The notes: generated from the letters alone by a model not told the origin. Shown: positions 34,249 to 56,099, numbered from the stretch's first letter. The stretch: 64,000 nucleotides of DNA from Candidatus Hermodarchaeota archaeon (GCA_048886185.1 JBHLKY010000007.1:99092-163091), one strand, 5' to 3'. Made by a program: numbers and translations.

Positions 34249-35064
34249 GTGAAGGAAAATTTTTCTTTGAATTCTGTTACCAATGAAAATTGTTTGCAGT
34301 TCATTCAGAAATTACCTGATAAGTCTATTGATATCGTACTTACAGATCCACCTTACGCCATATCTTCGGGTAATAAGTTGTCAATGAGAAATATTAAAAA
34401 ACAAAAGGGATTTGGTGGAGATTGGAACATTATTAATGAAAAATGGGATATTTTTTCATTTCAGGATTATTGCAGATTGATAGAAAATATGTTGAAAGAA
34501 ACGTACAGGGTTTTAAAACCAACAGGAACAGTATTTATCTGTGGAACTTACCATAATATAGGAATTATTAACTATTTTGCTCTTAAAACTACTTATAATA
34601 TTATCAATGAAATTATCTGGTTTAAGAGGAACGCTTTTCCAAATTTATCCCAAAAATGTATGACCGCTTCTCACGAGAACATTTTATGGTTAAGTAAATC
34701 AGATTCTTGGAATTATAATTATGAAGCCATAAAAGAAACAAGTTATCATTTTGATAAGATAAAAGAATCTGATAAGCAATTACGGTCCGTATGGGATATT
34801 CCAAATAATAAAGAGAAGGATGAGCTATTATATCGGACGGTTTTTACAGATCAATCATATTGGATTAAATCCCAAAAACCTCTTAGACTCATTGATAGAT
34901 GCATAGAACTGGCTTCCCAACCCGGAGATATTATCGCAGATTGGTTTAGTGGGTCAGGGACAACCCTAGTTTCAGCCTCAAATCATTCTTTATCCTTTAT
35001 TGGATGTGAAATCAACCCCAAATATGTTGAAGTAATCCGTTGGCGATTAGAAAGAGGAATTTAA
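34249..35064 (+). CDS. DNA methyltransferase, beta-class N6_N4_Mtase (DPPY motif IV, probably N6-adenine), apparently an orphan
   Basis: 271 aa. Motif IV IVLTDPPY lies near the N-terminus and motif I DWFSGSGTT near the C-terminus, which is the beta-class order. GTG start. Confidence 0.85.
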   Translation: MKENFSLNSVTNENCLQFIQKLPDKSIDIVLTDPPYAISSGNKLSMRNIKKQKGFGGDWNIINEKWDIFSFQDYCRLIENMLKETYRVLKPTGTVFICGTYHNIGIINYFALKTTYNIINEIIWFKRNAFPNLSQKCMTASHENILWLSKSDSWNYNYEAIKETSYHFDKIKESDKQLRSVWDIPNNKEKDELLYRTVFTDQSYWIKSQKPLRLIDRCIELASQPGDIIADWFSGSGTTLVSASNHSLSFIGCEINPKYVEVIRWRLERGI

Positions 35065-35181
35065 GGTTTTTTAATTAAAACTGATTTACTTGATTTTTTA
35101 TCTTTGATTTCATTATATTTAACTTACAGATATTAACTCTCTTCTATTTCTATTATTTTGGATCCTTTTGTATATTACTTT

Positions 35182-35964
35182 TTATCTAGCGACATTTAGA
35201 ATCGTTTCTCTCATTAATAATGGAAGAAGACCACTTAGAAGATAAACTGGGGTAAGGGGAATATAAAGAAGAATGATAAATGAATCACGATCAATGGAAG
35301 GTATGTTAATTGTTAGAAGAGCTAAGCTGATGAAAAAAATCATTTCTACAATAAGAAAATAAGAAATCTGTTTCAATTTTTGTGGCCAGGAATAAATAAT
35401 AAAGTTTTTTGAACCCAATTTCAGCTCTATTGTCTGATCTACCTTATGTTTGCTTGCAAAGTGAGCGAAAACTAAAAAATAAACTAATTCAAAGTGGCCA
35501 TCTAATGTACCGATTATTTTAGCCAACAGTGAGTTATAAATAGGACTAAGGTCTTCATATGTGAAAGAAAGGATGATCGTTCGTTCGCCTAATGGCTGAA
35601 ATGGCCATAAGAGAGTTACTCCATCAAAATAAACCATATCTAGCGCCACATGAATAAACATTCCAGCTGTTAATCCCACAATAAATGGATAATATATGAT
35701 TGAAGCCGATTTAAAATAAAAATTTGTCAGATAGCCAGTAATAAGGATTATGGCTATTATCACAAGACTGTGGGTCACTGAACGATGGAATGCAATTGCC
35801 ATCTCTTTTTCAGCGGTAAGAAGGAAGATTAAGACACTACCTAGAAGGTCAAGATCAGGTATGACAGAACCCGCTACTAGCCCAATTTTAAGATATTTAT
35901 GATTCTCTCCTAGTCTGCTTGCCAAAAATAATCCTAACAGACCATGAAAACCTGTCGGAGCCAT
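35182..35964 (-). CDS. membrane-bound metal-dependent hydrolase, YdjM/DUF457-like
   Basis: 260 aa. It has the N-terminal FHGLLGL motif, IPDLDLLGS, and HRSVTHSL His clusters within a polytopic membrane protein. Confidence 0.55.
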   Translation of the reverse strand: MAPTGFHGLLGLFLASRLGENHKYLKIGLVAGSVIPDLDLLGSVLIFLLTAEKEMAIAFHRSVTHSLVIIAIILITGYLTNFYFKSASIIYYPFIVGLTAGMFIHVALDMVYFDGVTLLWPFQPLGERTIILSFTYEDLSPIYNSLLAKIIGTLDGHFELVYFLVFAHFASKHKVDQTIELKLGSKNFIIYSWPQKLKQISYFLIVEMIFFISLALLTINIPSIDRDSFIILLYIPLTPVYLLSGLLPLLMRETILNVAR

Positions 35965-36127
35965 AAAAGTATTTCTTCCTTTGTTTTATACCATTAAATT
36001 TCAAATCTTATTGTAAAGTAACTACGGAAACTTTTACTGGTAACTCTTTAATTAAACGCGATATCCTAATTATCTAACTCACCTTAAAATCAGGAGCTTG
36101 AAAGGGTAAAATTTGGAGAAAGATTAA

Positions 36128-36883
36128 GTGACTATTAGAGCAACTGGTAGAATAACACGCGTTTTAAAACAAGCAATGCCACACGGTTTTAGGGGAGTCT
36201 ATAAAATTAACATTGTTGGCTCAACGGGGGCTGGAAAGACTGAGTTTCTGCGATATTTATTAAAAGATCTATTTGAACCCAGTACAGAAGCACCAAGACG
36301 TTCAAAAACCGAAAATACGGTAGATTCAACACACACTTGGTTTCATATTGGTCCTCAGAGCAAACAATCGACGACAACTATAGCTTTAAACCCAGTAGGG
36401 ATTTTATTAGTGCGGACCTTATTTAACTCCATTGAATTCCATCCAGTTAATAAAGTTGACGAATTGCTTTTGCGTGATGACATTGAAGAAATATGGCAGT
36501 TAATATTCTTTGATAATGCTGGTCAAGAAAGATTTGACTTTATGCCACAAATCACAATGCGTGGTGCTGATGCGGTAATAGTTCTAGCAGATGGAACCAA
36601 TATGGCTAGTATAGAAAAGATTTCATATTTTTTAGAACTTATACAAGATGAAGAGTACAGAGCAAGTGGTGGATTAATTCGGATCCCCGTTTTTATTCTT
36701 TTAAATAAGAAAGATTTAATTGAGTACGGTTGTTTTATTGGCCTTAAAAGTGTTCGGCATATGATCGGTTCCTCTGATGAATATGATTTTTATGAAACAT
36801 CAATGAAAACTGGAGATGGAGTTGATGATACAATTAGATCACTGATCTCCCGCCTTCATGAAAAAGCTATTGAAAAGAGATAA
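36128..36883 (+). CDS. Ras-superfamily small GTPase (Rab/Arf/Roc-like)
   Basis: 251 aa. It has G1 GSTGAGKTEF, G3 FDNAGQERF (DxxGQ), and G4 LLNKKDL (NKxD). GTG start. Confidence 0.75.
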   Translation: MTIRATGRITRVLKQAMPHGFRGVYKINIVGSTGAGKTEFLRYLLKDLFEPSTEAPRRSKTENTVDSTHTWFHIGPQSKQSTTTIALNPVGILLVRTLFNSIEFHPVNKVDELLLRDDIEEIWQLIFFDNAGQERFDFMPQITMRGADAVIVLADGTNMASIEKISYFLELIQDEEYRASGGLIRIPVFILLNKKDLIEYGCFIGLKSVRHMIGSSDEYDFYETSMKTGDGVDDTIRSLISRLHEKAIEKR

Positions 36884-36900
36884 TATTCCCATCGTAGGAT

Positions 36901-37218
36901 TTATTCTTTTCTTAATGCCTCTACTGTATCTAATTTCGCTGCTCTCTCGAAGGGATAAAATCCTGCTACCATTATATTTCCTTCTTTAGGATTATCCAAA
37001 GTTCCTAAACAGTTAAGTAATGTATTTTTTCCTGATCCTGAAAATCCCATTACTACAATACAGTCTTCTTTTTTCACCAGTAACTCTACACCTTGAAGTG
37101 CATTCACCATCACTCCTTCTCCTAAATTGTATGTTTTTCGTAGGTTAGTGATTTCAATTGTGAAGTCAGTTTTCTTTTTGTGGAAGGATTCACCAATAAA
37201 ATGTTCCCCTTCTTGATT
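36901..37218 (-). pseudogene. truncated ABC transporter ATP-binding protein (N-terminal 100 aa only, LolD/MacB-like)
   Basis: The frame encodes ...IEITNLRKTYNLGEGVMVNALQGVELLVKKEDCIVVMGFSGSGKNTLLNCLGTL...EALRKE and then stops. The Walker A is present. The Q-loop, signature, Walker B and H-loop are absent. There is no canonical start for the full N-terminus. Confidence 0.55.
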
Positions 37219-37548
37219 TTATTGGTGGAATATGCTTATTAGTGCAGAAATCATAATACTTACTAAAAGAAATAGTAAAATTAGTGTTGGAATGAAAAAT
37301 GAGACCTTTAGGTTATTTAAAAGAGCAACACATTGAAGAAATCTCTCTGCTAGAATAACCATTAATGCTAATATGATATTCATTCTTGAATCAGTTAAAA
37401 TACCTAGTAACCCCAAAATCCCATAAAAAACCATTATAATGGGAATAACGGCCGAAATTGGATATTGAAGGATATTAACAGCTGATTTGAATAATCCAAA
37501 TCTCTCTGCAAGTGAAAAAAGAGTCAGCTTAAGAATAAGATAACTGAG
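37219..37548 (-). pseudogene. C-terminal fragment of an FtsX-like ABC permease
   Basis: The open frame ...LAERFGLFKSAVNIL...MVFYGILGLLGIL...ALISIFHQ resembles the last TM helices of an FtsX/LolE permease. The N-terminal about 300 aa are absent. Confidence 0.4.
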
Positions 37549-37664
37549 ATATCTTCAAAATCAGAAATCGAATCTGAAAATTGATTAATAGTCATCTTCT
37601 ATTCTATATCAAAATCTATCAGTTCTTATTCCTTTCATTAGGCTCTTCATTGATGATCTATTTG

Positions 37665-38645
37665 TCATTTATTCTTATAACGGGGATTTTCTGCTTCAAA
37701 AATTATTCGTTCTATTGTTTTATCAAGGTGATAATTCTCAGGGTAGATTTTGGAATTTTTTGAAGGAGTTGCTTTTTTACCAACTTGTCGTGAAAAGGTA
37801 AATTTTGTAATATCTTCTCCTGTTTTATCTACATACCGTCGTAGTGTTTTAAGGTTTGGAAAGTTATCATTTTCATCAGGAACACCATTTAGACGATGAT
37901 TAGCTATATCCACATACTTTTTGACTATCTCACATCCAATAAAACGTCGATTATTATTTTTAGCTACAACTGCAGTAGTACCAGATCCTATGAACGGATC
38001 TAGAACAATGTCATTTAATTCAGTTGTCGAAAGAATAATACGTGTAACTAAATCTTCAGGAAACTGACATGGATGTTCTGTCTGTTCTTCGTGGTTGTGT
38101 TTGACATTTCTAAAAGCCCAAACGTCTCCTGGGTTCTTTCCACGAGGGTCACTAGTAAATTTGCCGTAGTCCATACCTTGGCGATAATTCTTCTTTTTAG
38201 GATAAATTTGTGGCACACGAATGTCATCTAGGAAGAACTTATAGTTATCAGATTTGGAAAACCAAAGAATTGTTTCGTGACGGTTCGAAAATTTATGTTT
38301 CGCATGCGTTCCATGCTGACGAATCCAGATTATTCTATTCCTTGGAATGAAACCTAATTTAACAAAAATTGGAAAAATAACTGCATCCCATGGGAAATGA
38401 GCTCCATTGTTTCCAACATATGTTCCAACTTGATAGAAAATGGATCCTGTGATCTTAAGTATACGCCAACATTCAGTTAAAACCTTATTAGACCACTCTA
38501 AGTATTGGTTTAAAGTTGTTTTTTTCTCATACTCTTTACCTATTCCATAAGGGGGAGAAGTGACAATCAGATCAATAGTTTCTTCTGAAAGTTTTTTAGA
38601 GAATTCAATAAAGTCCTCATTATAGATTCTATTGTATTTAATCAT
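37665..38645 (-). CDS. DNA methyltransferase, beta-class N6_N4_Mtase (SPPY motif IV, probably N4-cytosine)
   Basis: 326 aa. It has the DLIVTSPPYGIG motif near the N-terminus and the LDPFIGSGTT motif near the C-terminus. An SD site (GAGGT) lies 11 nt upstream. It is co-oriented 17 bp downstream of gltX. Confidence 0.85.
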   Translation of the reverse strand: MIKYNRIYNEDFIEFSKKLSEETIDLIVTSPPYGIGKEYEKKTTLNQYLEWSNKVLTECWRILKITGSIFYQVGTYVGNNGAHFPWDAVIFPIFVKLGFIPRNRIIWIRQHGTHAKHKFSNRHETILWFSKSDNYKFFLDDIRVPQIYPKKKNYRQGMDYGKFTSDPRGKNPGDVWAFRNVKHNHEEQTEHPCQFPEDLVTRIILSTTELNDIVLDPFIGSGTTAVVAKNNNRRFIGCEIVKKYVDIANHRLNGVPDENDNFPNLKTLRRYVDKTGEDITKFTFSRQVGKKATPSKNSKIYPENYHLDKTIERIIFEAENPRYKNK

Positions 38646-38662
38646 AAGAAGATATAACCTCG

Positions 38663-40408
38663 TTAAAATGATTCAGTTAGGTTGAGTTGAACGCTGTTGG
38701 GTGTGAGCTTGTCAATTCTACCAAAACCTATACGTTCAAGCTGTATTATCTCACCTACCTGAAATTCTAAAACTGATTTTTCTATAAATCCACTTTTAAT
38801 TGTTAAAGAATTGGGATTAATCTTACCATCTATATATAAAGGACCTGGCACATTTATTGATAGATCAGTACTGTATTCTTTTGGTACCCATTGAATTTTT
38901 GGGTAATTTAGAGATGGATCTTCAATATAGTGGGCCTTAATAATATACCTTTTATCAGTCAATGTTTTTATTTCATAAATTTCAATATTAAAAAGATCCT
39001 TAAGCCGAACAAATTCCTTTGGCTTTAATAAATTTAGATCACTAAAACTAATGTAAAAAATTTCACTATAAGGGATTTTTCGCATCCCCAAATCAGTATT
39101 TTTTGGGTGATATGGTATTTTTACATCCTTTCCTGGCACATCAGCAACTTGTAGTTCAATTGGATCGACAACAGAAAATAATCGTCTTGTACTGTCGTCA
39201 ACAATCTTCCTATTGATTGCTAATAAAATTGACATATCCAGCTCTGATTGACCTGTACTTAATTGCATTTCAAAAGCCAATTGACGAATAGTTTCAGGAA
39301 CAATCCCACGTCGACGCATTCCTGAAAGGGTGCTTAGCCGAAAATCATTCCAATTTGAAATAATGCCTTTATTTATAAGTTCACGAATTCGTCTTTTTGC
39401 TACTGGAACATCAGACAATCGAAGTCTTGAAAAATGTACAAAAATAGGTGATCGCAGGCCAAGAACGTCTCTAATGTAATTCTGCAAAGGAACTTTCTGA
39501 ACAAATTCTTCCGATCTCAAAACATGAGTTATTCCAAGTATTGAATCCTCTATAGAAACTGCAAAATCATATAGAGGCCAAACACGATATTTATCCCCTT
39601 GTAAACAATGAGATGCTTCTATTACTCGCATTATAGTAGGATCACGCAATGCAGCATTTTTGTGAGACATATCTATCTTTAATCTAAGTGATAATTCCCC
39701 CTCAAGACTATCTTCAAGCATACGTTCCCACAATTCGAGGTTATCCGAAGATGTTGAAATTCGATGAGGACACTCTTTTTGTTTGTGCCTATTTTCGCGA
39801 ACAACTTTTACGGGGCAGCCGCATACATACGCATTTCTTTCTTCTATTAATTTCTGAACATAGTCATAATACAATGGGATTCTATCGGATTCATTAACTT
39901 CCTCATCCCATTCTATGCCCATAAACCGAAAATCTTCCCTGATGGCATCATAATACTTCAGTTCAACCTTCCGGGGATTGGTGTCTTCAAAACGCAGAAT
40001 CAGCTTACCATTGTATCTCTTCGCATAGTAATAATTTATGAACCCTGCATATCCGTGTCCTATATGTAAATACCCGCTTGGTTCAGGTGGTAGTCTTGTA
40101 CACACTTTACCATCAATAGCTCCTTCAAGCGGAGGAAGTGTTGTCTTTTTTTTCTTAATTCTTTCTTCTTTTTTAAAAAACTCTGGATATTTTTCTTGAC
40201 AGTGCTGTTCGATTTCTTTTGGACTCAAAGAGTTAACAAAAGTAATTTTAGATGAAGTTAAAGTCGCGATCTCCTTTACTTGACTTTTTAGCCCTGGAAA
40301 AGCAGCAATTATTGCTCCCATTACAGAACCAGTTTTTGCTTTACCGTGTTTCATGGCGTTTTCATAAACAAATTTGTCAATAATTTTTTCAAGATCCAAA
40401 ATATCCAC
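38663..40408 (-). CDS. gltX: glutamyl-tRNA synthetase, archaeal/eukaryal-type class I
   Basis: 581 aa. It has the HIGH region PEPSGYLHIGH and the THVLRSEEF segment, which is related to the GlxRS catalytic core. The N-terminal about 90 aa are a helical appended domain. Confidence 0.8.
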   Translation of the reverse strand: MDILDLEKIIDKFVYENAMKHGKAKTGSVMGAIIAAFPGLKSQVKEIATLTSSKITFVNSLSPKEIEQHCQEKYPEFFKKEERIKKKKTTLPPLEGAIDGKVCTRLPPEPSGYLHIGHGYAGFINYYYAKRYNGKLILRFEDTNPRKVELKYYDAIREDFRFMGIEWDEEVNESDRIPLYYDYVQKLIEERNAYVCGCPVKVVRENRHKQKECPHRISTSSDNLELWERMLEDSLEGELSLRLKIDMSHKNAALRDPTIMRVIEASHCLQGDKYRVWPLYDFAVSIEDSILGITHVLRSEEFVQKVPLQNYIRDVLGLRSPIFVHFSRLRLSDVPVAKRRIRELINKGIISNWNDFRLSTLSGMRRRGIVPETIRQLAFEMQLSTGQSELDMSILLAINRKIVDDSTRRLFSVVDPIELQVADVPGKDVKIPYHPKNTDLGMRKIPYSEIFYISFSDLNLLKPKEFVRLKDLFNIEIYEIKTLTDKRYIIKAHYIEDPSLNYPKIQWVPKEYSTDLSINVPGPLYIDGKINPNSLTIKSGFIEKSVLEFQVGEIIQLERIGFGRIDKLTPNSVQLNLTESF

Positions 40409-40607
40409 ACTTCGTTGTAAAATGTGTAATGTTCAATTGATCAGTAAAAATGATTGTATTAAAGCTACTATAAGTAATTTAACTAGGGGAACAAGTAGTT
40501 TGTGAAACTCATTTGGGGGAATATGATAATGGAATAACAATACAAATTTTATTAATTATTAACTATTTTCCTCAGATGAAAGGTTCACATCTAACTGGGT
40601 TATTAAA

Positions 40608-41303
40608 ATGCAAAAACTGACTCTAGAAGACATCATTAATCAGGATATAAATGATTTTAAGAATTGTCAACAGCTTCATGATTGTGAAGGGTGTGAAAAG
40701 CCCACCTGTGTTATGATTGTGGCTATAGCTGATTTTCCAAGTAAATATGGGCTTTTTAAGATTGTAGGTTTCGTTAATAATAAGGATCAAGAAGAACACA
40801 TTGCTATAATTAAGGGGGATATTTCAAATAAAGAGGGGATCTTAACTCGTGTTCATTCAGCATGTTTAACTGGAGATGCTTTAGGTTCTCTACGATGTGA
40901 CTGTGGTCCTCAATTGGGGCAATCTCTAAAAAAGATCGAAGAGAAAGGACTAGGTGTAATAATTTACATGCAACAAGAGGGCCGAGGGATAGGACTATTG
41001 AATAAACTCCGTGCTTATGCCTTACAAGATGATGGTTTCGATACATATGATGCGAACATTGCACTGGGATTTGGTCCAGATCAAAGAGATTATGAGGTGG
41101 CTGGAGCGATGTTAGAAAAGTTGGGTGTGAAGAGTATTCGTTTAATCACGAATAATCCAGAGAAAATTAATCAACTTGGTAAGTTTATCAAAATCATTGA
41201 ACGAATACCGATTGAATTACCTGCAACTGAATATAGTCTTAACTACTTACAAACAAAAAAGCAACGTTTTGGGCATTTATTAAGGATTCATTCGAGAGGA
41301 TAG
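40608..41303 (+). CDS. ribA: GTP cyclohydrolase II (bacterial-type RibA)
   Basis: 231 aa. It has the Zn motif CLTGDALGSLRCDCGPQ and the EGRGIGLLNKLRAYALQDDGFDTYDAN catalytic segment. Confidence 0.8.
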   Translation: MQKLTLEDIINQDINDFKNCQQLHDCEGCEKPTCVMIVAIADFPSKYGLFKIVGFVNNKDQEEHIAIIKGDISNKEGILTRVHSACLTGDALGSLRCDCGPQLGQSLKKIEEKGLGVIIYMQQEGRGIGLLNKLRAYALQDDGFDTYDANIALGFGPDQRDYEVAGAMLEKLGVKSIRLITNNPEKINQLGKFIKIIERIPIELPATEYSLNYLQTKKQRFGHLLRIHSRG

Positions 41304-41444
41304 TTCTCTGAACGTTTGGAATATAAAAAGAACATGATATCTTAAACAGGTCCAAAGAGTAATTAATTTTAGCAGCAGTTTTTTTGGCATATAAGCAAAA
41401 TGAATTCTATATTGTTTAACATAAAGGATATCTGGTATGTCTAT

Positions 41445-42359: not shown

Positions 42360-42416
42360 TTAATCACCCCCCGTTGAGTTGTTAATTACGATAATCGTAA
42401 TAAGGAAAGTTGGAAA

Positions 42417-43274
42417 ATGAACAGAAATCTTCTATTAGGATTTAGTCTCTCTTTGATCGGAGCTGTTGTAGGAATGCTAGGTGGTATGGTAATTTTTGTA
42501 TTCACATACGAACCTTACATGTGGTGGGAAGCACACAGTCCATTGGCAGAAGAAGGATGTAAAGTCATTATTGAGGAGATTCTGCCTATTATCTCTGATC
42601 TCAGCATCATTGGTGGATTATTATTTGCGGTGAGTGCTTATGGATTCTATACAGAGGAGGAATGGTCTGTTTCAGTTGCAATAGTAGGTAATACCCTCTG
42701 TTTATTAGCTGGTTTTTGGCCTACTATCCCTGCGATGCAAATGGGGTTGATACCAATCTGGGGAATTATTTTTCTTCCGAATTTAATTATATTTTTAATT
42801 ATAACTCATTATGTAGCGGGTATCCCATGGATTACTGTAATTCTTGCACTTCTTACTGGAATAGCTTATGTAATGTGCTTCTTAAATGGTGTTGCAAGTA
42901 CTAATCGCATGAAGCTATTCTTACCTTATGAAGGAGCAGACATCAGTACTATTGCAGATCCAACTGTAACTATTCACGCGGTTTTCAGAGCTTTACAGAG
43001 AGTCAGTTGGGCTGCAGCTATTGGTTGGGGGATTACAACAATTGGAATCCTACGTCGTCCGAATGAGGATTGGGTACGCATTGTAGCTCTTGGTTCTGGT
43101 ATTTTAGCTATAGTAACTGGATATCCTGTAGCTGTTGCGTCATCGCTTAGTTTTGGGAAATTTTCTATGTTCTTCATGGCACCAATTCTCTCAACTTTAC
43201 TGGTAATGGTTCCATTTTTCCCACGGATATGGAATCGACTAGTTCTTTCTCCTGAAAACCAAGCTGCGAATTAG
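42417..43274 (+). CDS. hypothetical integral membrane protein
   Basis: 285 aa with about 7 TM helices. It is divergent from the trmB-like gene. Confidence 0.4.
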   Translation: MNRNLLLGFSLSLIGAVVGMLGGMVIFVFTYEPYMWWEAHSPLAEEGCKVIIEEILPIISDLSIIGGLLFAVSAYGFYTEEEWSVSVAIVGNTLCLLAGFWPTIPAMQMGLIPIWGIIFLPNLIIFLIITHYVAGIPWITVILALLTGIAYVMCFLNGVASTNRMKLFLPYEGADISTIADPTVTIHAVFRALQRVSWAAAIGWGITTIGILRRPNEDWVRIVALGSGILAIVTGYPVAVASSLSFGKFSMFFMAPILSTLLVMVPFFPRIWNRLVLSPENQAAN

Positions 43275-43420: not shown

Positions 43421-44275
43421 GTGAAAAGAATAATATATTCTCAAAATAGAGTACTTCCTTTTGAAGCTATTTATGGAGTACCAATGATTATTTTATGGAT
43501 TGTTACATTTTTGTTCTGTATTATCTTGATTGATGCGAAATTGTTGACTAAAAGAGTGAGATTTGGAATTTATGCATTAAATATTGTAAGTGCAGGTATT
43601 TTGTTAGGTGGAATACCCAATGCAGTCGTCCCTATACAAGAAGTTATTATAACAATTGGTCTTAGAGGTGATTTTGGCTATCTTCTCCCAGCAATTATAG
43701 TTTTAAGCGTTTTATTGATTTCATCTGTGTTCGTAGGAAGGATTTTTTGTGGATTTGCATGTCCTTTAGGAGCTTTACAAGAAATCATCTCTGGAATAAA
43801 CTTCAAATCTAATCTAAAATCACACAAACAAGTGAAATATCGAATTGATGTCTTCTCTCCTTTGCCAAGTATAATCCGATGGATTTTTCTTGGTGTTATA
43901 ATTCTTTTGGCATTTTTGGGTGTTATTCTTCTTCCATTGTTTAATCCTCTCTCAGGATTTGCAGTTATAAAAAGACAATTTGAACTTGCAGTGATAATTC
44001 CTTTCATCAGCTTAATTTTTGTAAGTTTCGCGAGTATTTTTTTGTATCGTCCGTGGTGTAGGTTTATATGTCCTTTTGGTGCGGGATCCTCCCTCTGTGG
44101 ACGGTACACCAGAAAAAAATATCGTCGAACAGAAAACTGCACAAATTGTGGGGCATGTGAAGAAATATGTCCTACTCAAGAAGCAGGAACTGATAGTAAG
44201 AAGGGAGAGTGCTATTATTGTAATCGCTGCATAGAAATATGCCCCCATGACGCTATCACGCTTAATTTAGGGTGA
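43421..44275 (+). CDS. NapH/MauN-like membrane-integral polyferredoxin (4Fe-4S binding)
   Basis: 284 aa. It has the FCGFACPLGALQE and RFICPFGA CxxCP-type TM motifs plus two C-terminal CxxCxxCxxxCP clusters (CTNCGACEEICP, CYYCNRCIEICP). Confidence 0.65.
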   Translation: MKRIIYSQNRVLPFEAIYGVPMIILWIVTFLFCIILIDAKLLTKRVRFGIYALNIVSAGILLGGIPNAVVPIQEVIITIGLRGDFGYLLPAIIVLSVLLISSVFVGRIFCGFACPLGALQEIISGINFKSNLKSHKQVKYRIDVFSPLPSIIRWIFLGVIILLAFLGVILLPLFNPLSGFAVIKRQFELAVIIPFISLIFVSFASIFLYRPWCRFICPFGAGSSLCGRYTRKKYRRTENCTNCGACEEICPTQEAGTDSKKGECYYCNRCIEICPHDAITLNLG

Positions 44276-46733: not shown

Positions 46734-46773
46734 TGACATTAATCAATATTACATTCGCCAAGAAAAGTACTGT

Positions 46774-47721: not shown

Positions 47722-49407
47722 ATGGCGGATATTAAAGCTATAGCCTCCTTCATACCTCAAAATAGGCTCTCTATTGAAGAGTTGGTCGATAGCTATCACA
47801 GTTTATCTACCCTGAATTATAAGGTTGCCTTACGAAAGCTCAAACAAACAGTTAATCGCTTTCGTGGGAAGACTTTGCGTAGTGTTCGTTGGGTATATAA
47901 TCAACGGTTAATGCTTCGAGAAAAGGTTGTTCCAGGTCCTAATGAGGATGCACTAACTGCTGGCACTCAATCGTTAATATATGCTATACGTCGTGCAGAT
48001 ATTTCTCCGGATGAAATTGACGCGTTATTTGTTGTTTCAGAATCTTATCCCTATGCTGTAAAATCAAGTACCGCTATTGCGGGAAAAGCTGGTTTAACTG
48101 ATCTAAAGTATGGTGTTCGTGGAGAATTTGCCTGCAAACCCTTCGGGGAGTTTCTCGATATTGCAGCTGCACTTATTGATTCTGGGAGGTGTAGGTATGT
48201 TGCTGTTACTGCAACAGACGCTAGTCAAGGTGCTCCAGGGGATGATCTAGAATTTTCAGCATCTTTCTATTCTACTAGTATTATTCTTGGGAAAGAAAAG
48301 GGTATTGCTGAGATCAAAGGACGGACATCCATTAATTATGATTTTTCAGATTTTATAAGGAAAGAGGGAGAAGAATTTCCTGAGCATGAGGGTCAGGGTA
48401 CCTCACTAGCGTTCCGAGGAATGATCCTTTCTACATTAAAGAAACATCTAGAACGCTTTCCAGAAATGGATACTAGTTGTCTTTCAAGAAAGACTTGGGT
48501 AATTCATTCTCCCAATGGTAGTTTTCCTAATGAGGCATTATTAGATATTGGGAACCATTTTGGAGTTACTTTAGCTGAAAAAGTCTTTGATGATGATGGT
48601 ACTTTGCTAGGGATTGAACCTAGGGTTAATGTCTCAAATTTAGCTCCTGATATTGCTAATGGTTATTCTGCAACTGTACCAACCGCATTATGCAATGCTA
48701 TGGAAAATGCGAAAAAAGGTGAAGAGATTATGGCTGTTCTTTACGGTTCAGGAGCAGGATCGGACGTAATTAGCATTAAACTTAAAGCAAATGGATCACA
48801 AGTGGCTAATAATGGAGTTCCCACAGTACAGGAGCAGATAGACTATAAACAAAAAATCACTGTTGACGACTATTTCCGCTTTCGTGATAGTCCAGATCAA
48901 GTAGCGAGAAATATAGCTTTGCTCGAAGTAGACCCAATATCCAAAGAATATTATCAGATGGAGGGGTGTCCTGAATGTGGTGCTGTGTACTTTGGTGATA
49001 GTTGGACCAAGGGGAACTTCCCTGATTTTTCTCCTCCTGAAAAATTTGACGAGTTAGAAGGTCGATGTTTACGTGGGATTCAGAAAAGAGCTGGCGATCC
49101 TAAAAAAATATGTGGAGCCAAATTAAAACAGGTGAAAATTCCTAAAAGGGCAAAAATTAGAAATGTACACTATTATGCTCCTTCAAAAAAGTCCCCTGGC
49201 CATCCTGAAAACCCTTATTGGGCAATGTTTGATCAAAAGTATGTTAGGGGTTTTAATTACAATCCAAAAGTCTGTAGTTTTGCTGAAGGAGAGGAAGTAA
49301 AAGCAGTTATTGGTCGTTGGCGTCCTGCACCGAAAGGATGGGTACCAATATTATATGTTCCTATGTATACTCATCTAAGGCGAGATTACCAACAATCATC
49401 AAATTAA
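47722..49407 (+). CDS. HMG-CoA synthase-like thiolase-fold condensing enzyme fused to a C-terminal zinc-ribbon (DUF35-like) extension
   Basis: 561 aa. VPGPNEDALTAG, VSESYPYAVKSS, EFACKPFGE and TDASQGAPGDDLEFSAS closely match archaeal HMGCS catalytic regions, as does HSPNGSFP. The C-terminal about 190 aa carry CPECG...C..C. Confidence 0.7.
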   Translation: MADIKAIASFIPQNRLSIEELVDSYHSLSTLNYKVALRKLKQTVNRFRGKTLRSVRWVYNQRLMLREKVVPGPNEDALTAGTQSLIYAIRRADISPDEIDALFVVSESYPYAVKSSTAIAGKAGLTDLKYGVRGEFACKPFGEFLDIAAALIDSGRCRYVAVTATDASQGAPGDDLEFSASFYSTSIILGKEKGIAEIKGRTSINYDFSDFIRKEGEEFPEHEGQGTSLAFRGMILSTLKKHLERFPEMDTSCLSRKTWVIHSPNGSFPNEALLDIGNHFGVTLAEKVFDDDGTLLGIEPRVNVSNLAPDIANGYSATVPTALCNAMENAKKGEEIMAVLYGSGAGSDVISIKLKANGSQVANNGVPTVQEQIDYKQKITVDDYFRFRDSPDQVARNIALLEVDPISKEYYQMEGCPECGAVYFGDSWTKGNFPDFSPPEKFDELEGRCLRGIQKRAGDPKKICGAKLKQVKIPKRAKIRNVHYYAPSKKSPGHPENPYWAMFDQKYVRGFNYNPKVCSFAEGEEVKAVIGRWRPAPKGWVPILYVPMYTHLRRDYQQSSN

Positions 49408-49449
49408 TCTATTCCATTGGTCAAGTAGATTAATGAGTTTCTGGTTTTA

Positions 49450-50307
49450 TTATTTTTGACATTTTGAGCAATAGAAGGTACTTCTGTTTTTCTGAGTCAT
49501 CCGACTTATATGAGTTCCACAAACAATGCAGGGTTGTCCCTCCCGATTGTAGGCCATATGCCATGATTGAGCATCCCCAGTAGCGCCTGATGGTAGTTCA
49601 TAAGGCTGAAAATTCATAGAGCTCCCCTTATCTTGCAACGCCTTCTGCAATATTTTGCTAATCGCTAGTCCTAGCTCCTCTCTTTCAGTATTTGAGAGCG
49701 TGTCTACTTTTCTTAAAGGATGAATCTTCGCGCAAAATAGAGATTCAGTTTTGTAGATATTACCAATTCCAGCTACAAGGCGTTGATTAAGTAATACCTC
49801 ACCAATCGGTTTATCTTTAAAATTTATTTTACTAAGTCGAGTTAAAAACTCTTCTAATGGAAAAGGAGAGGCTAATCCATCAATTCCTAAAAATCGAATT
49901 GGATCGTACTGCATAACTTTCTCATAAGAGGAAAATACTTTAAATTGGCCAAAATTACGGATATCATCGAAAATAGCACATGGGGGTGTTTCCATCTGTA
50001 CAATTACTTTAATGTGGTTTGCGGTTGAGGGTAACTTATTAGTATCAGTATAAAGACACCACTTCCCTGACATGCCTAAGTGATTCAAGATGACTGCGTC
50101 AACCCTCTCAAAACACCAAACTAAAAATTTCCCAAAACGAACAATATCTTGAATTGTTTTCCCTTTAAATTGCTCAAAAAACGGCTGTTTATTATTATAT
50201 TTAGCATATTTTTGAGACAATGGAGTCAATTGAATCCTTTTGACTTTCTTTGAAATCAGTTGACATAATTCTCGTCTCACACTTTCTACTTCAGGACCTT
50301 CAGGCAT
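49450..50307 (-). CDS. formamidopyrimidine-DNA glycosylase / endonuclease VIII (Fpg/Nei family)
   Basis: 285 aa. It has the N-terminal MPEGPEVE with catalytic Pro2/Glu3, a helix-two-turn-helix region, and the C-terminal zinc finger CIVCGTHI...CSKCQK. Confidence 0.8.
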   Translation of the reverse strand: MPEGPEVESVRRELCQLISKKVKRIQLTPLSQKYAKYNNKQPFFEQFKGKTIQDIVRFGKFLVWCFERVDAVILNHLGMSGKWCLYTDTNKLPSTANHIKVIVQMETPPCAIFDDIRNFGQFKVFSSYEKVMQYDPIRFLGIDGLASPFPLEEFLTRLSKINFKDKPIGEVLLNQRLVAGIGNIYKTESLFCAKIHPLRKVDTLSNTEREELGLAISKILQKALQDKGSSMNFQPYELPSGATGDAQSWHMAYNREGQPCIVCGTHISRMTQKNRSTFYCSKCQK

Positions 50308-50514
50308 TTTTAATTACCATTTCTGATTTTAGAGATAACTCCCTAATTTCTTAACGATAAACAATGGTTTTAAGAAAAGCTTTACTCTTTTCGTTCTTTA
50401 CCATTAAAACTATTCTAGCAACCTGAATGAGCTGATAGTCGCACTTATAGTCATTGTACGCTATCTACAAACATATTACTATATAAACAGGCTTCTGTAG
50501 AGAAGATTTGAAGA

Positions 50515-51384
50515 ATGAATAAATTAAAATTTTCCACTTCAGTTATGGAAATTATTAGACGACGCTATTCTTGTAGAACTTATAGTTTAGAACCCCTTGA
50601 TGAAACAATCATTGATAATTTAAGAAAATTCCTCCAAGAAGACTATAGTAGCCCTCTAGAAGGTGAAATACGGTTTGAATTATTGGAGATGTCAGATTTA
50701 GATCCTAAAGTAAAGAAAAAACTTGGTACTTATGGGTTCATCCAAGGAGCTCAATATTTCCTTGTTGGAGCAGCTACAAAATCTAGGTATGATATGGAGA
50801 ATTTTGGGTATATTTTTGAAGAGTTAATATTAATTGCGACTGATTTGGGTTTAGACACTTGCTGGGTTGGCGGAACTCTTCGACGTAACAGATTTGCAGA
50901 CCAGATCAACATCATGGATAGTGAAATTATCCCAGCTATTACTCCTGTCGGATATGCAGCAAAACATCGTAGTAAAGTTGATAGATTGGCACGTTGGGCA
51001 GCTCGGTCAAAAAATCGCTACCCTTTTACAAATTTATTCTTCGAAGGAGACTGTAAGCATCCGCTTACTCAAGAGAAAGCAGTTCCATACGATATACCAT
51101 TGGAGATGATACGAATTGCTCCCTCGGCATCCAATCGACAACCTTGGCGAATTATAAAGGAAATTGATAGCCATCATTACCATTTCTTCATTCTTCGGAA
51201 TAGAAGCTGGTACAGCCACTTTCTCTCATGGCCTGATTTTCCAAGGGTTGATCTAGGAATCGCTATATGTCACTTTAATTTAACTGTTCAAGAATTATGT
51301 CTTCAAGGAAGGTGGCAATTTATTCGACCTAAATTCACCATTCCAAATCATCTAGAATATTTCATCTCATGGATTAGTGAGTAA
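50515..51384 (+). CDS. nitroreductase-family (FMN-dependent) protein
   Basis: 289 aa. The N-terminus IIRRRYSCRTYSLEPL matches the nitroreductase fold signature. Confidence 0.55.
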   Translation: MNKLKFSTSVMEIIRRRYSCRTYSLEPLDETIIDNLRKFLQEDYSSPLEGEIRFELLEMSDLDPKVKKKLGTYGFIQGAQYFLVGAATKSRYDMENFGYIFEELILIATDLGLDTCWVGGTLRRNRFADQINIMDSEIIPAITPVGYAAKHRSKVDRLARWAARSKNRYPFTNLFFEGDCKHPLTQEKAVPYDIPLEMIRIAPSASNRQPWRIIKEIDSHHYHFFILRNRSWYSHFLSWPDFPRVDLGIAICHFNLTVQELCLQGRWQFIRPKFTIPNHLEYFISWISE

Positions 51385-51419
51385 AACTTTTTTAAAATAA
51401 AGAAATATTTACGAAAGCT

Positions 51420-53435
51420 ATGTTAACAACTCACTCATTTAAGAACTACATCAATCAATTTTATTCAGAATTAGCCCTAATCAGTATAACATTTCTATTT
51501 TTCTTCGAATTAATATCGGATTTCGTAGAGGCAATTTATGCCCTCTGTCTTTTGACTCTATCCCTCAATGAGAACATTCTAAGCATTATTTTTCTCTTTT
51601 CTCCTATACTTCTAGTATTCTTAAGGAAAAACTTTTCAGATAAAATTCTCATTATTGTTGGGGAATTAATGGTTGTTTCTCGAATTCTTGAACCATTATT
51701 AAGCAATTACACACAAATTAGGATGATAGTTGCTGGTTTGGGCGTTGCTTGTTTTCTTATTTTTTTACCGTTATTTCTCTACCGAAAATATGGGTATGAA
51801 GAAGAGCAAAGTGCTATAACAATTGGATTAGGATTGAGTATTGGATTAGCATTATCAATTTTGTTTAGGACAATTGGTTCATCAATTGATATTTCCACTT
51901 ATAGCTGGTTTCAATCGATTGGTTGGATACTGGCAATAGTCGCAGGTATCATGTTTCTTGGCTTGGTAACAAGAGAGCAAAAGGTCGCTAACTCATTAAG
52001 TCTAGGAGACTCTATTAGTATTTGGAGAACAGTAGGGCTCACAATTGGCTTAATTGGAATTCTAATGATGATATATTATACTTTTGCTAGTCCTACTGTC
52101 GTTTCTAGGTGGACTGAAGGGAATTACTTTCTTATTGTCTTCTTAGCTATTATTATGCTTACTCTCTTTGTTGTTATTGTAATAATGAAGCGTGATTTAT
52201 TGAAGAGATTAGATCCTTGGATAATTTGGTTAGGGAATGCCCTTTTTGTTATATCATTAGTCTTAACAATCATGCTAAATCAAACAGATTTTTCAAGAAA
52301 TGCTTATCCAATTGATGCCCTTCCGACAACAATACTAAATCATATACCACTAATCTTGATGATATTTCTTTTCCCAATAATCTTAGTTGATTTTATGTTA
52401 ATCTCTCGTGAGGTAATAATTAACAAACCAACATTGGGGAAATTAGCTGTGGGTTTCGCTCTCGCATCGATGTTTTTCTTACTTATGATCTTTGCACATG
52501 TTTTTACGACAGTTTATGACTACATTGATGTTGTTGGCCCTTTTTTTCGTGACATGTTTTGGTTTGTGTATTTAATCGGGGGATTGAGTGTTGCCTTACC
52601 AGTATTTTTTGTGAGAAGGGGAGCTTTCATTTTCGATCCATTCGTTCTCGAATTCCGATCCAAGATAGTTGCTATAGTTATTATGACCATTACAATAGGA
52701 ACTATTTTTGCTGCGTTTCTAACCGCCCCCACGCCTCCTACTCTTGGAGAAACCCCCTCAATAACTGTTTTGACTTATAATATTCAACAAGGATATAGCG
52801 AAGATGGCATTAAAAATATTGATGGTCAATTACACGTAATTAAAGCAATTAATCCTGATATTATTGGATTACAGGAATGTGATACAGCTAGGATTGCTAA
52901 TGGAAACATGGATGTCGTTAGATATTTTGCTAATAATCTGAATATGTATTCTTATTATGGTCCGAAGACAGTTACGGGAACATTTGGGATTGCATTACTC
53001 TCAAAATATCCAATCATGAATCCTAATACTTTTTTCATGTCTAGTGAAGGTGAACAGGCAGCAACCATTACAGCACAAATCAAAGTGGGTACGATTCTTT
53101 TGAATGCATTTGTGACACATCTTGGTAATGGTGGCCCCCTTGTGCAACAAGAAGAAATACTTGATCGGATCGAAGGAAAAAACAATCTAATTCTGATAGG
53201 TGATTTTAATTTTAGACCAGGTACTATCCAGTATAATAAAACCATGAGTAATTTAAATGATTCATGGTTAATCTCACAGACTTCAAATCTAGAATATTTG
53301 GATGATATTGAATACAACATTAATCGAAGGATAGATCACATCTTTGTATCTTTCGGAGTAGCTGTTTCCGAATGTGAATATATTGTAAGTAAAGAATCAG
53401 ACCACCCAGCAGTTTGGGCTGAAATCATACTATAG
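51420..53435 (+). CDS. membrane-anchored endonuclease/exonuclease/phosphatase (EEP) family protein
   Basis: 671 aa. It has an about 440-aa polytopic N-terminal domain. The C-terminal EEP motifs are LTYNIQ, GLQECD, GDFNFRPG and SDHPAVWAEI. Confidence 0.7.
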   Translation: MLTTHSFKNYINQFYSELALISITFLFFFELISDFVEAIYALCLLTLSLNENILSIIFLFSPILLVFLRKNFSDKILIIVGELMVVSRILEPLLSNYTQIRMIVAGLGVACFLIFLPLFLYRKYGYEEEQSAITIGLGLSIGLALSILFRTIGSSIDISTYSWFQSIGWILAIVAGIMFLGLVTREQKVANSLSLGDSISIWRTVGLTIGLIGILMMIYYTFASPTVVSRWTEGNYFLIVFLAIIMLTLFVVIVIMKRDLLKRLDPWIIWLGNALFVISLVLTIMLNQTDFSRNAYPIDALPTTILNHIPLILMIFLFPIILVDFMLISREVIINKPTLGKLAVGFALASMFFLLMIFAHVFTTVYDYIDVVGPFFRDMFWFVYLIGGLSVALPVFFVRRGAFIFDPFVLEFRSKIVAIVIMTITIGTIFAAFLTAPTPPTLGETPSITVLTYNIQQGYSEDGIKNIDGQLHVIKAINPDIIGLQECDTARIANGNMDVVRYFANNLNMYSYYGPKTVTGTFGIALLSKYPIMNPNTFFMSSEGEQAATITAQIKVGTILLNAFVTHLGNGGPLVQQEEILDRIEGKNNLILIGDFNFRPGTIQYNKTMSNLNDSWLISQTSNLEYLDDIEYNINRRIDHIFVSFGVAVSECEYIVSKESDHPAVWAEIIL

Positions 53436-53505
53436 GAATAATCAAAGAGAATTAAAAGAAACAGAAACAAGATTTTGAATAATAATAACGAATGGAGACT
53501 CACTT

Positions 53506-54405
53506 TTGTCTTTGAGGACAAAATCAATGTCTGATTATGGTTGTCAGTCAATGATAGGAAAAATGAGAAGGGTGTTGATTAAAACTCCAAAAGATGCTTT
53601 TATTAGTCAAGATTACTTGTATAAAAACTGGAATGATTATAACTACTTATCCTGTCCCAGTTACGAGAAAGCATTAAAGGAATATGAAGCTTTTGAAGGA
53701 ATACTAAAGGAGTTTGTACCAGTGATAAACTATCTACCTTATGACCCAGAAGTTGGTTTGGATTCGATATTTACTCACGATCCAGTGAAGATCACAAAAA
53801 AGGGGGCGATCTTACTAAATATGGGTAAAAGAGGACGAATGAATGAGCCTTATGTAATAAATAAAATACTAGAAAAATTAGGCATTCCTATTCTTGGTTC
53901 AATAACAGGAAAAGGGACAGTTGAGGGGGGAGATTTATTGTGGTTAGACGAGAAAACACTAGCTATAGGGAGAGGATATCGGACGAATGATGAGGGTATC
54001 ATACAAATAAAAGAAATCACAGCAAATATTGTAGAGAAATATGTGATTGTGCCTTTACCCCATGGAGATGGTCCAGAAGCATGTCTTCATCTGATGTCCA
54101 TAATAAGTATGATTGCTGAAGACTTGGCAGTAATTTACTCTAAATTCATGCCTGTTCAATTTCGTGAATTATTGATTACATGGGGGATAAAATTACTCGA
54201 AGTTCCTGAAAAAGAATTTTACACATTAGGATCCAATGTACTAGCTATTGAACCTAGAAAGTGTATTATGGTTGCAGGTAATCATAAAACAAAGAAATTA
54301 CTCGAAAATGAGGGTGTTGATGTATTTGAGTATGAGGGAGAAGAAATATCACTCAAAGGTTCAGGGGGACCAACTTGTTTAACCTGCCCTATCGTTCGGA
54401 AGTGA
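53506..54405 (+). CDS. amidinotransferase-superfamily hydrolase (dimethylarginine dimethylaminohydrolase/arginine deiminase-like)
   Basis: 299 aa. GTVEGGD, RTNDEG and LHLM are present, and the C-terminal GSGGPTCLTCPIV carries the catalytic Cys. The arrangement is colinear with DDAH. Confidence 0.65.
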   Translation: MSLRTKSMSDYGCQSMIGKMRRVLIKTPKDAFISQDYLYKNWNDYNYLSCPSYEKALKEYEAFEGILKEFVPVINYLPYDPEVGLDSIFTHDPVKITKKGAILLNMGKRGRMNEPYVINKILEKLGIPILGSITGKGTVEGGDLLWLDEKTLAIGRGYRTNDEGIIQIKEITANIVEKYVIVPLPHGDGPEACLHLMSIISMIAEDLAVIYSKFMPVQFRELLITWGIKLLEVPEKEFYTLGSNVLAIEPRKCIMVAGNHKTKKLLENEGVDVFEYEGEEISLKGSGGPTCLTCPIVRK

Positions 54406-54556
54406 ATTAACCAAACTATTCAGAAAAATAGCTTTTTCAAATCTCATTAATCGTTTCTCATCTTCTTGTATTGTACATCATACTTTTCTTATATAAAGAA
54501 GAAAAAACCATAAAAGATTGAATTCAATTCTTCTGCAATAAACTTGGTAGATAAGC

Positions 54557-54967
54557 ATGAGTAAATGTATATTTTGTAAGATTGTCAGTGGTGTGGAACC
54601 TGGGATTTTTATTTATGAAGACAAAAAAACATTGGCAATTTTAGATATTTACCCAATATCTAGAGGGCATACACTTGTTATTCCTAAAAAACATTCACGA
54701 AATCTCTTTGACATTCAAGATGATGATGTCGCAGCGATTGGAATAACAATTAGGCGTGTAGCTAATGTATTGAAACAAGTTCTCCAATGTGATGGAATTA
54801 ATATTCTTCAGGGAAATGAAAGAGCTGCATTGCAAGAAATCTTTCACACACATTTTCATGTCTTACCACGGTGGTTTAATGATAAAATTATCTTTGGAGC
54901 ACAGCGAGAACGACTTAAGGAAGATCCTGTATTGATATCACAACTAAAACAGGGATTTTCTAAATAA
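54557..54967 (+). CDS. HIT (histidine triad) family nucleotide hydrolase/transferase
   Basis: 136 aa. It has the N-terminal CIFCKIV and the HTHFHVLPR (HxHxHxx) motif. Confidence 0.85.
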   Translation: MSKCIFCKIVSGVEPGIFIYEDKKTLAILDIYPISRGHTLVIPKKHSRNLFDIQDDDVAAIGITIRRVANVLKQVLQCDGINILQGNERAALQEIFHTHFHVLPRWFNDKIIFGAQRERLKEDPVLISQLKQGFSK

Positions 54968-56099
54968 TTTAAAGAGGTGTTTTCTTATCTCTGAATTTCA
55001 GAACACAATACTTCATGGAGATGCATTTAAACTCATTGATAAACTTCCAAATGACTCAATTGATACTGTAATCACAAGTCCCCCATATTGGCGGCAAGTA
55101 AGATACAGTGAATCTGATAATGAATTAGGCCAGGAAAGCTCTGCTCAAGAATACATAAATAAAATATGTCTTCTCTTCAATAAAATCAAACACAAGCTTA
55201 AGGATCATGGATCACTCTGGGTCAATGTGGCAGACAATTATATAAGCAATAAAACGAAAAATATCCATTCCCTGAGTCTAGCAGCAATCCCTGAGCTTTT
55301 TAAATCGACCATGATTTACACTTATTCTTGGATCTGTCGAAACGACATTATCTGGTATAAACCAAACGCTAGACCGAGTGGTGGAGTTTCAAGTCGGTTC
55401 GGAGTTGATTATGAGCACATTTTTTGGTTTGTGAAGAGTCCATATTATTATTTTGTTACTCAACGTCTTCCTCATGAATGGATTGAAAAAGATAATCTTT
55501 CTCTGATAGGAAAATCAAGTAAAGCTGATCTTCTCGAGCATAATGAAAAGAAAACTGTTGGGATGCATGAAGCATTAAGCTTACGGGGGAAACCACGGAC
55601 AAAAAGATATCATCCATTGGGGAAATTGATGCGTAGTGTGTGGCCCATTGAGATTGAAAATGGCGAACTACCATTTATTATCTATCCTACCATCTGGATG
55701 ATAAACACAACTGGATATTCAGGAAAACATTTTGCTCCTTTTCCCTCTCAACTTGTACATCGTGTTTTAACCACTACCTGCCCCAGAAGAGTATGCAATC
55801 TTTGTGGGAAACCTATATTCGATCCGTTAGTTAAGGCTTATTATCCTAAAACGACTAAGAGAATCCTTTGCACTTGTGGAACAGTTTTGGAGTCGGAAGA
55901 GTCGAACCCAGGTTGTGTTTATGATCCCCTTGCAGGAACTGGGACAGTAGCTAAAGCAGCTATTGAATGTGGTAGGAATTTTATTGTTAGTGAGATACTT
56001 CAAGATAACATTAAGCAAATTCATGACAGAATAAAGACCGCTGAATTTAAAGACTTCTATATAATGGAATTTTTAGATTATTCAGATAAATTGAAGTAG
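54948..56099 (+). CDS. DNA methyltransferase, beta-class N6_N4_Mtase (SPPY motif IV, probably N4-cytosine); initiation codon unresolved
   Basis: The frame is open from 54948 and encodes ...ILHGDAFKLIDKLPNDSIDTVITSPPYW...NDIIWYKPNA...VYDPLAGTGTVAKAAIECGRNFIVSE. The first ATG/GTG/TTG in frame is the GTG at 55227, which lies after the catalytic SPPY. The frame overlaps the HIT gene by 20 nt in the +1 frame. Confidence 0.7.
   Translation, partial: NRDFLNNLKRCFLISEFQNTILHGDAFKLIDKLPNDSIDTVITSPPYWRQVRYSESDNELGQESSAQEYINKICLLFNKIKHKLKDHGSLWVNVADNYISNKTKNIHSLSLAAIPELFKSTMIYTYSWICRNDIIWYKPNARPSGGVSSRFGVDYEHIFWFVKSPYYYFVTQRLPHEWIEKDNLSLIGKSSKADLLEHNEKKTVGMHEALSLRGKPRTKRYHPLGKLMRSVWPIEIENGELPFIIYPTIWMINTTGYSGKHFAPFPSQLVHRVLTTTCPRRVCNLCGKPIFDPLVKAYYPKTTKRILCTCGTVLESEESNPGCVYDPLAGTGTVAKAAIECGRNFIVSEILQDNIKQIHDRIKTAEFKDFYIMEFLDYSDKLK

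Follow-up and report, generated by a model that had tools for sequence, protein, structure and literature searches.

The window analysed here is a stretch of 64,000 nucleotides from the metagenome-assembled genome (MAG) of a Heimdall-type Asgard archaeon (GCA_048886185.1, JBHLKY010000007.1:99092-163091). It carries three genes for DNA methyltransferases, which are referred to in their order as MT1, MT2 and MT3:

MT1, 34249..35064, + strand: 271 amino acids, beta-class enzyme with DPPY motif; predicted N6-adenine DNA methyltransferase; monocistronic and divergent from the OsmC gene.
MT2, 37665..38645, - strand: 326 amino acids, beta-class enzyme with SPPY motif; relative of M.BglII; predicted N4-cytosine methyltransferase for AGATCT.
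MT3, 54987..56099, + strand: 370 amino acids, beta-class enzyme with SPPY motif; predicted N4-cytosine methyltransferase; proposed start codon ATC.

Exactly three proteins of the window match PF01555 (N6_N4_Mtase) in a Pfam search, namely MT1 (E = 4e-45, 154.9 bits), MT2 (E = 1.7e-64, 218.3 bits) and MT3 (E = 9e-30, 104.7 bits), and all of them exceed the Pfam gathering cut-off of 26.7. The translations place motif IV N-terminal to motif I with the recognition domain in between, which is the beta-class order: TDPPY is found at residue 32 and FSGSGTT near residue 233 of MT1, TSPPY at residue 29 and FIGSGTT near residue 218 of MT2, and TSPPY at residue 30 and LAGTGTV near residue 315 of MT3. Family search and motifs agree with the initial annotation of the window, which had described three beta-class methyltransferases with DPPY, SPPY and SPPY, each with motif IV preceding motif I. 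Its assignment of target bases from these motifs is reasonable as well, and is backed for MT2 by the 59% identity to M.BglII, a proven N4-methylcytosine (m4C) enzyme. Since mutual identity among the three proteins is only 27-29% and a tblastn search revealed no fourth copy in the window, they represent three separate families, not recent duplicates.

The window was compared with related loci, which are numbered with an L in the following. Among the close relatives, which include two complete Heimdallarchaeota chromosomes (CP070760.1 and CP070695.1), the labels are Heimdallarchaeota, Hodarchaeales/Hodarchaeota, Promethearchaeota and, in one or two cases, Thorarchaeota. Each methyltransferase belongs to a sharply bounded clade of orthologues. 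For MT1 identity within the clade is 61-81% and then drops to 49% or less, with members from Heimdall/Hod-type MAGs only; for MT2 it is 70-81% followed by ~60%, and for MT3 76-82% followed by 35% or less. Members of the three clades are named only from Promethearchaeota, Heimdall, Hod or "Thor" MAGs. The catalytic and cofactor motifs are invariant among the orthologues of MT1 (DPPY and FxGxGTT), all MT2 orthologues retain SPP[YF] and F/YxGxG, and all MT3 orthologues retain SPPY and the motif I glycines (LAGTGT). A gltX-based scan of genome contigs for close relatives returned one distant Thermoproteota match only.

The positions of the genes are conserved together with the sequences. MT2 follows gltX at a distance of 12-17 nucleotides in three other assemblies (L002, L003 and L005). 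In L004 (CP070760.1) it lies behind a gltX fragment of 241 amino acids (9181-9906) comprising the C-terminal anticodon-binding domains of GluRS, with a leucine-rich repeat protein adjoining, so that the junction has survived a rearrangement of gltX. MT1 adjoins the OsmC gene in L005, and the gene of a HIT-family hydrolase is located directly upstream of MT3 in L006, L007, L009, L022 and L023. A Nudix hydrolase gene is adjacent to MT3 in L007 and L008, two genes away from it in L006, and not present in its vicinity in L009. Three assemblies contain all three methyltransferase genes, and three further contigs or genomes contain two of them. As measured by record coordinates, the trio extends over 22 kb in CP070695.1 and over ~28 kb in JBHLMN010000008.1, and the cluster itself is therefore ancestral. 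Relative to CP070695.1, MT1 is 74.7%, MT2 77.9% and MT3 79.5% identical, compared with 72.2% for GluRS, 80.0% for RibA, 74.4% for the M24 peptidase and 75.4% for Fpg. The methyltransferases thus diverge no faster than GluRS (75-80% versus 72%), which is a housekeeping-like rate. Because they occupy the same places in related genomes and change at such a rate, we consider it likely that MT1, MT2 and MT3 are beta-class DNA amino-methyltransferases inherited vertically in a Heimdall-type Asgard lineage as solitary ("persistent orphan") enzymes, and not parts of defence systems.

The following genes flank the methyltransferases:

OsmC, 33645-34094, - strand: flanks MT1.
YdjM membrane hydrolase, 35182-35964, - strand: flanks MT1.
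gltX (archaeal-type GluRS), 38663..40408, - strand: Pfam tRNA-synt_1c; directly upstream of MT2 on the same strand.
HIT-family hydrolase, 54557..54967, + strand: PF01230 at 9e-24; directly upstream of MT3.
Nudix hydrolase, 56133..56582, + strand: PF00293 at 3e-19; 33 nucleotides downstream of MT3.

Every gene directly flanking a methyltransferase has a confident Pfam assignment to a non-nuclease family. The genes between the methyltransferases are of a housekeeping kind and encode a GTP cyclohydrolase II, a TrmB regulator, a ferredoxin-domain protein, an M24 peptidase, a transporter, an HMG-CoA-synthase-like protein, Fpg/Nei, a nitroreductase, a membrane EEP protein and a DDAH-like protein. 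Two open reading frames (ORFs) lacking a family assignment, 56600-57577 on the - strand and 42417-43274 on the + strand, encode polytopic membrane proteins. No PADLOC defence model was matched by seven tested neighbours and hypothetical proteins, only the methyltransferases themselves giving matches, and tblastn with two BglII-family endonucleases against the window and six related loci gave a best E of 0.3. A cognate endonuclease next to its methyltransferase, as in a Type II system, is not found at any of the three genes, whose flanks are OsmC/YdjM, GluRS/ABC remnant and HIT/Nudix. The neighbours that had initially been named (OsmC, a membrane hydrolase, gltX and HIT/Nudix) are thus the same as those given by Pfam, and the view that no restriction endonuclease adjoins holds up against the flanking families, PADLOC and the BglII search. 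Two options had been left at that stage, orphan or regulatory enzymes and partners of unrecognised effectors; the non-nuclease flanks, the PADLOC result, the synteny and the housekeeping-like rate favour the former.

MT2 is 59% identical over 321 amino acids (E = 2e-137) to P0048, a Bacillus atrophaeus enzyme of 360 amino acids, with an alignment that covers residues 5-324 of 326 and includes the recognition domain, and it matches the PADLOC model PDLC03230 over its full length (5e-127). In the Bacillus atrophaeus cassette a helix-turn-helix C protein is followed by a 223-residue PF09195 Endonuc-BglII protein and then by the 360-residue methyltransferase, and a Spirulina relative of MT2 is likewise paired with a BglII-family nuclease. 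MT2 and M.BglII have the recognition region, the C-terminal tail and the SPPY and FxGxG motifs in common. By contrast, neither a BglII endonuclease nor a C.BglII controller adjoins MT2, which is located behind gltX, is inherited vertically within an archaeal lineage and does not have the ~31 N-terminal residues of M.BglII. Judged by these alignments, MT2 belongs to the BglII-type N4-cytosine methyltransferases but has lost both the nuclease and the controller. In the methylome of the BglII source strain the product of M.BglII is AGAT(4mC)T (PMC4882945), and the same product is the most likely one predicted for MT2.

The gap of 780 bp downstream of MT2 holds the remnant of an ABC transporter operon and no nuclease, so that a BglII-like nuclease or its remnant beside MT2 was rejected:

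ABC operon remnant, 36904-37539, - strand: small membrane ORF, truncated ATPase with Walker A motif (GFSGSGKNTLLN) and last 23 codons of an FtsX permease.

The full three-gene ABC operon is present downstream of MT2 in L002 and L004. On the other side, the stop codon of gltX is separated from the ATG of MT2 by a 17-nucleotide spacer, in which GAGGT ends 11 nucleotides before the ATG. Translational coupling of MT2 behind gltX had been proposed from the outset; the Shine-Dalgarno motif at this distance and the conserved juxtaposition stand, and the coupling itself is something that we infer. AGATCT is not avoided in the window, where 24 sites are observed compared with ~22 expected from composition. 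All 24 lie outside a stretch of 20.3 kb (36265-56602; post hoc P ~0.0025), but this gap is not conserved in orthologous loci and was rejected as a meaningful feature. Two AGATCT sites within the 3' end of gltX, conserved as a pair in three orthologues and absent from the window, were considered as a means of autoregulation and rejected, as they are explained by conserved RDL/KDL codons.

It is quite improbable that at least one of the methyltransferases provides the modification in a functional restriction-modification or other defence system, with YdjM, the EEP protein or a hypothetical ORF as unrecognised effector. Type II nucleases often escape detection by hidden Markov models (PMC10609329), YdjM and EEP have metal-dependent hydrolase folds, and EEP is weakly similar to exonuclease III. 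However, YdjM is a membrane protein and EEP, whose N-terminal two thirds lack a family assignment, was labelled as one in the initial annotation, and they do not adjoin a methyltransferase in all genomes: in L005 YdjM is two genes away from MT1, and the DDAH and HIT genes stand between EEP and MT3. The seven neighbours and hypothetical proteins also lack PADLOC matches, AGATCT is not depleted, the methyltransferases evolve like core genes within conserved housekeeping synteny, and no close viral copies of MT1 or MT3 hint at counter-defence.

Some features of these neighbours were recorded in their own right. The EEP protein (51420-53435, + strand, 671 amino acids) has two paralogues in L006. 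Its EEP domain forms the C-terminal third, from about residue 450 onward, and finds its best Pfam match in PF23226, the PGAP2IP/Cwh43-type "nuclease-like" domain of eukaryotic glycosylphosphatidylinositol-anchor remodelling proteins. The gene of a Ras/Roc-like small GTPase (36128-36883, + strand, 251 amino acids), which is 82-83% identical in related genomes, is always divergently paired with the YdjM gene.

For MT1 either GTG 34249 or TTG 34267 may serve as start codon; the former, which had been chosen initially, is possible, and the public annotation uses the latter. DPPY favours N6-adenine, and MT1 is a predicted N6-adenine enzyme. Its best solved relative is the catalytic domain of CcrM (E = 1.6e-33), of which residues 3-251 align with the catalytic domain of MT1; the alignment to 6pbd stops at chain residue 259 of 366. 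CcrM and M.HinfI need a conserved C-terminal segment of ~80 residues for activity on duplex DNA (PMC7672430), which MT1, ending at residue 271, does not have. In the CcrM/HinfI family the Loop-2B residues L42, R44, W57 and D58 and the Loop-45 residues N120, P123, N124, F125, G127, R129 and N132 are characteristic (PMC7672430). After correction for an 8-residue tag offset MT1 retains six of these 11 (L42, W57, D58, N120, P123 and N124), in addition to the DPPY motif, whereas R44 is replaced by M, F125 by L, G127 by Q, R129 by C and N132 by A. The NCBIfam equivalog model for CcrM gives MT1 158.7 bits against a cut-off of 830. A CcrM-type enzyme for GANTC was rejected on the grounds of the signature residues, the absent C-terminal segment and the NCBIfam score. 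The specificity could not be read from the 45%-identical Firmicutes relatives either, whose contexts are uninformative and consist of a second D12-class methyltransferase with a 691-residue protein of no assigned family, or of recombinase-linked islands. No viral copy of MT1 or MT3 above 44% identity was found.

The start of MT3 required revision. It had been set to 54948, which is not a start codon but merely the first codon after an in-frame stop, and overlaps the last 20 nucleotides of the HIT gene. The first in-frame ATG, GTG or TTG is at 55227, downstream of the SPPY motif. A different signal is found in front of the conserved N-terminus:

Shine-Dalgarno-like AGAGGTG, 54973..54979, + strand: 7 nucleotides upstream of the proposed ATC start of MT3.

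In all six orthologous loci that were aligned (the window at 54973-54989, L006 at 5989-6003, L007, L009, L022 and L023) AGGTG is followed, after exactly 7 nucleotides, by ATC (four loci) or ATT (two loci), and in four of the six no canonical start is present upstream of the conserved N-terminus. Five of the six loci have the HIT stop codon 12-20 nucleotides upstream of ATY, and in L023 the HIT stop TAG is in frame immediately before AGGTG. GGTG also occurs 5-9 nucleotides upstream of the canonical starts of several other genes of the window, which supports its reading as a ribosome-binding site. The public annotations of MT3 orthologues are inconsistent, one using this ATC, one an internal ATC, and others beginning after motif IV. 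The most likely start of MT3 is the ATC at 54987, and the simplest reading would be that a near-cognate AUC/AUU start has been conserved and is coupled to the end of translation of HIT, with which MT3 is probably co-translated. AUU and AUC initiation codons limit or autoregulate expression of bacterial infC and pcnB. The likeness to these genes consists in an apparent start at a conserved AUC/AUU, 7 nucleotides behind a Shine-Dalgarno motif; unlike them, MT3 encodes a DNA methyltransferase of an Asgard archaeon and would be initiated 12-20 nucleotides after an upstream stop. Another gene of the window may have an ambiguous or non-canonical start, namely the ferredoxin-domain ORF (43421-44275, + strand), whose opening GTG is itself within an AAGGTG motif (43421-43436) with ATA codons 6 and 9 nucleotides downstream of it.

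That MT3 is instead a decaying or silent gene, which has lost its start codon and yields no active enzyme, is quite improbable. The absence of any ATG, GTG or TTG upstream of SPPY in the window, and the annotations of several orthologues that start inside or after motif IV, would be in keeping with decay, but the frame is intact at 76-82% identity, with ~200 alignment columns invariant across 13 orthologues, and the spacing of AGGTG, 7 nucleotides and AT[CT] is kept in six divergent loci, as would not be expected of a dead gene.

The recognition domain of MT3 comprises approximately residues 155-250, between motif VIII and the HFAPFP motif, is near-invariant among orthologues, and is included as a whole in the invariant columns. 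When this segment alone was compared with 1.84 billion representative proteins, its own clade was found at 6e-57 and the next best match at 4e-9, which marks the domain as apparently specific to its lineage. Before motif I, residues 265-297 form a Cys4 zinc-ribbon insert (CPRRVCNLCGKP...CTC); it was rejected as a unique feature, since it is common to a subset of distant homologues. The nearest relatives outside the clade, one on a phage-like contig and one in a bacterial locus with a NERD protein, are at most 40% identical, and an origin of MT3 derived from them was rejected. An AlphaFold model of MT3 was obtained from 58 sequences with a predicted local distance difference test (pLDDT) of 80 and a predicted template modelling score (pTM) of 0.82, residues 165-245 being of low confidence. 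In a Foldseek search of this model against the PDB the first 46 places are taken by beta-class DNA methyltransferases and Type III Mod subunits only, with M.BceJIV (E = 1.3e-16), CcrM, MboIIA, rotifer N4CMT, TTHA0409, RsrI and PvuII among them; MT1 and MT2 match the same solved beta-class chains by sequence. MT3 is probably an N4-cytosine enzyme, as its SPPY motif suggests.

These structural matches argue against an RNA or small-molecule substrate. An MT3 that is not a DNA methyltransferase, but acts with the flanking HIT and Nudix proteins on RNA or a nucleotide-linked substrate, is very improbable. It would account for the HIT gene upstream of MT3 in every locus examined, for the Nudix gene often found downstream, and for a recognition domain that has no relatives outside the clade and is modelled at low confidence. 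However, the 46 best structural matches comprise nothing but DNA methyltransferases and Mod subunits, METTL3, an RNA enzyme, follows only at E ~5e-5 with partial coverage, the closest relatives by sequence are ordinary PF01555 enzymes in phage-like and bacterial contexts, and the Nudix gene is not always nearby.

A recently acquired genomic island or mobile element with several methyltransferases, as might be suspected from ~60% identical MT2 relatives in cyanobacteria and Bacillus and from the nearest outside relatives of MT1 in Firmicutes, some of them beside recombinases, is almost certainly not what lies here, since the region has no integrase, transposase or tRNA gene, GC is flat at 0.31-0.39, the intervening genes are housekeeping genes, and the gene order is common to genomes with GluRS only 72% identical, so that any transfer must be ancient.

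Two further observations concern the window at large. CCGG is strongly depleted throughout (8 sites observed, where a Markov model predicts 29 and composition 62), and more so than other CpG-containing palindromes, which may point to an activity elsewhere in the genome that restricts or modifies CCGG specifically. The Rfam family PYLIS_3, the pyrrolysine insertion element of mttB, matches with 51 bits at 28418-28517 on the - strand, inside the ORF 28023-29465 (- strand), beside which a corrinoid-binding protein (30381-31034) and an ORF of 295 amino acids (29472-30359) are located. A pyrrolysine codon at this match was rejected, as the MttB-family ORF of 480 amino acids is uninterrupted and has no in-frame TAG; it resembles an Asgard MttB homologue of the non-pyrrolysine kind.

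Several points weigh against inherited orphan methyltransferases as the explanation of MT1, MT2 and MT3, or against parts of it. Type II nucleases are hard to recognise by sequence (PMC10609329), and the nuclease search covered the adjacent genes and a few hypothetical proteins by family assignment. The persistence of the genes is derived from a handful of genomes, and in the complete chromosome CP070760.1 MT1 and MT2 are present, whereas an orthologue of MT3 is not among the matches listed. The predicted activities and targets of the trio rest on sequence; given 59% identity, the site of MT2 could also be a related one such as RGATCY, and MT3, having no canonical start, could be poorly expressed or not expressed at all.

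With these points taken into account, persistent orphan methyltransferases are still the favoured explanation, from which we infer the activity of the enzymes, their targets, the AUY start of MT3 and the role of the trio in the cell as follows. Each methyltransferase would mark its own short sequence in chromosomal DNA with S-adenosylmethionine as methyl donor. MT2 would descend from a BglII-type restriction-modification system whose nuclease and C protein were lost, would most likely produce AGAT(4mC)T, and would be expressed from the end of the gltX transcription unit. MT3 would be translated just after HIT from the conserved AUC/AUU behind the Shine-Dalgarno motif, and its level would thereby be kept low. 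The marks could act as an epigenetic signal for replication, repair or regulation, or provide standing protection against incoming restriction systems. More tentatively, and with a confidence that falls a little short of even, the cluster can be seen as an ancestral three-methyltransferase epigenetic toolkit of Heimdall-type Asgard archaea, in which MT3 has a unique recognition domain and is re-initiated at AUC/AUU after HIT. If this were true, MT3 would provide the first description of a conserved near-cognate start codon for an Asgard archaeon, and the start would serve to hold a genome-marking enzyme at low abundance.

DNA methylation is almost uncharacterised in the archaeal lineage closest to eukaryotes: the Asgard methylomes that we found are those of Atabeyarchaeia and Freyarchaeia only (PMC11529989), and the paper on two Heimdallarchaeum genomes does not discuss chromosomal methyltransferases (PMC8813620). 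The trio supplies three conserved candidate enzymes for cloning and methylome work, and for MT2, which would be a bacterial-type restriction-system methyltransferase domesticated as a core gene, a testable prediction is that AGATCT sites carry m4C and resist BglII. The probable AUC/AUU start is flagged here as a conserved one that gene callers treat inconsistently.

Persistent orphan methyltransferases are documented in other archaea by a REBASE-based survey, in which one Asgard genome, that of a Lokiarchaeon, was included (PMC10609329). Persistent examples are the CTAG m4C enzyme of Halobacteria and the GATC and AGCT enzymes of Nitrososphaerota and Methanomicrobiales (PMC10609329). Like these, MT1, MT2 and MT3 are solitary, Type II-like, conserved across a taxon and without a nuclease partner, and the modifications concerned are mostly m4C or N6-methyladenine (m6A). 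They differ in lineage, which is Heimdall-type Asgard, and in the families to which they belong. Furthermore, the site predicted for MT2 has 6 bp, compared with only 4-5 bp for those of the surveyed persistent groups (PMC10609329), and, unlike the surveyed orphans, the three genes are clustered in a conserved block of 22-28 kb. The trio is thus of a known kind, in a lineage from which it was previously undescribed, and is not a new kind of system.

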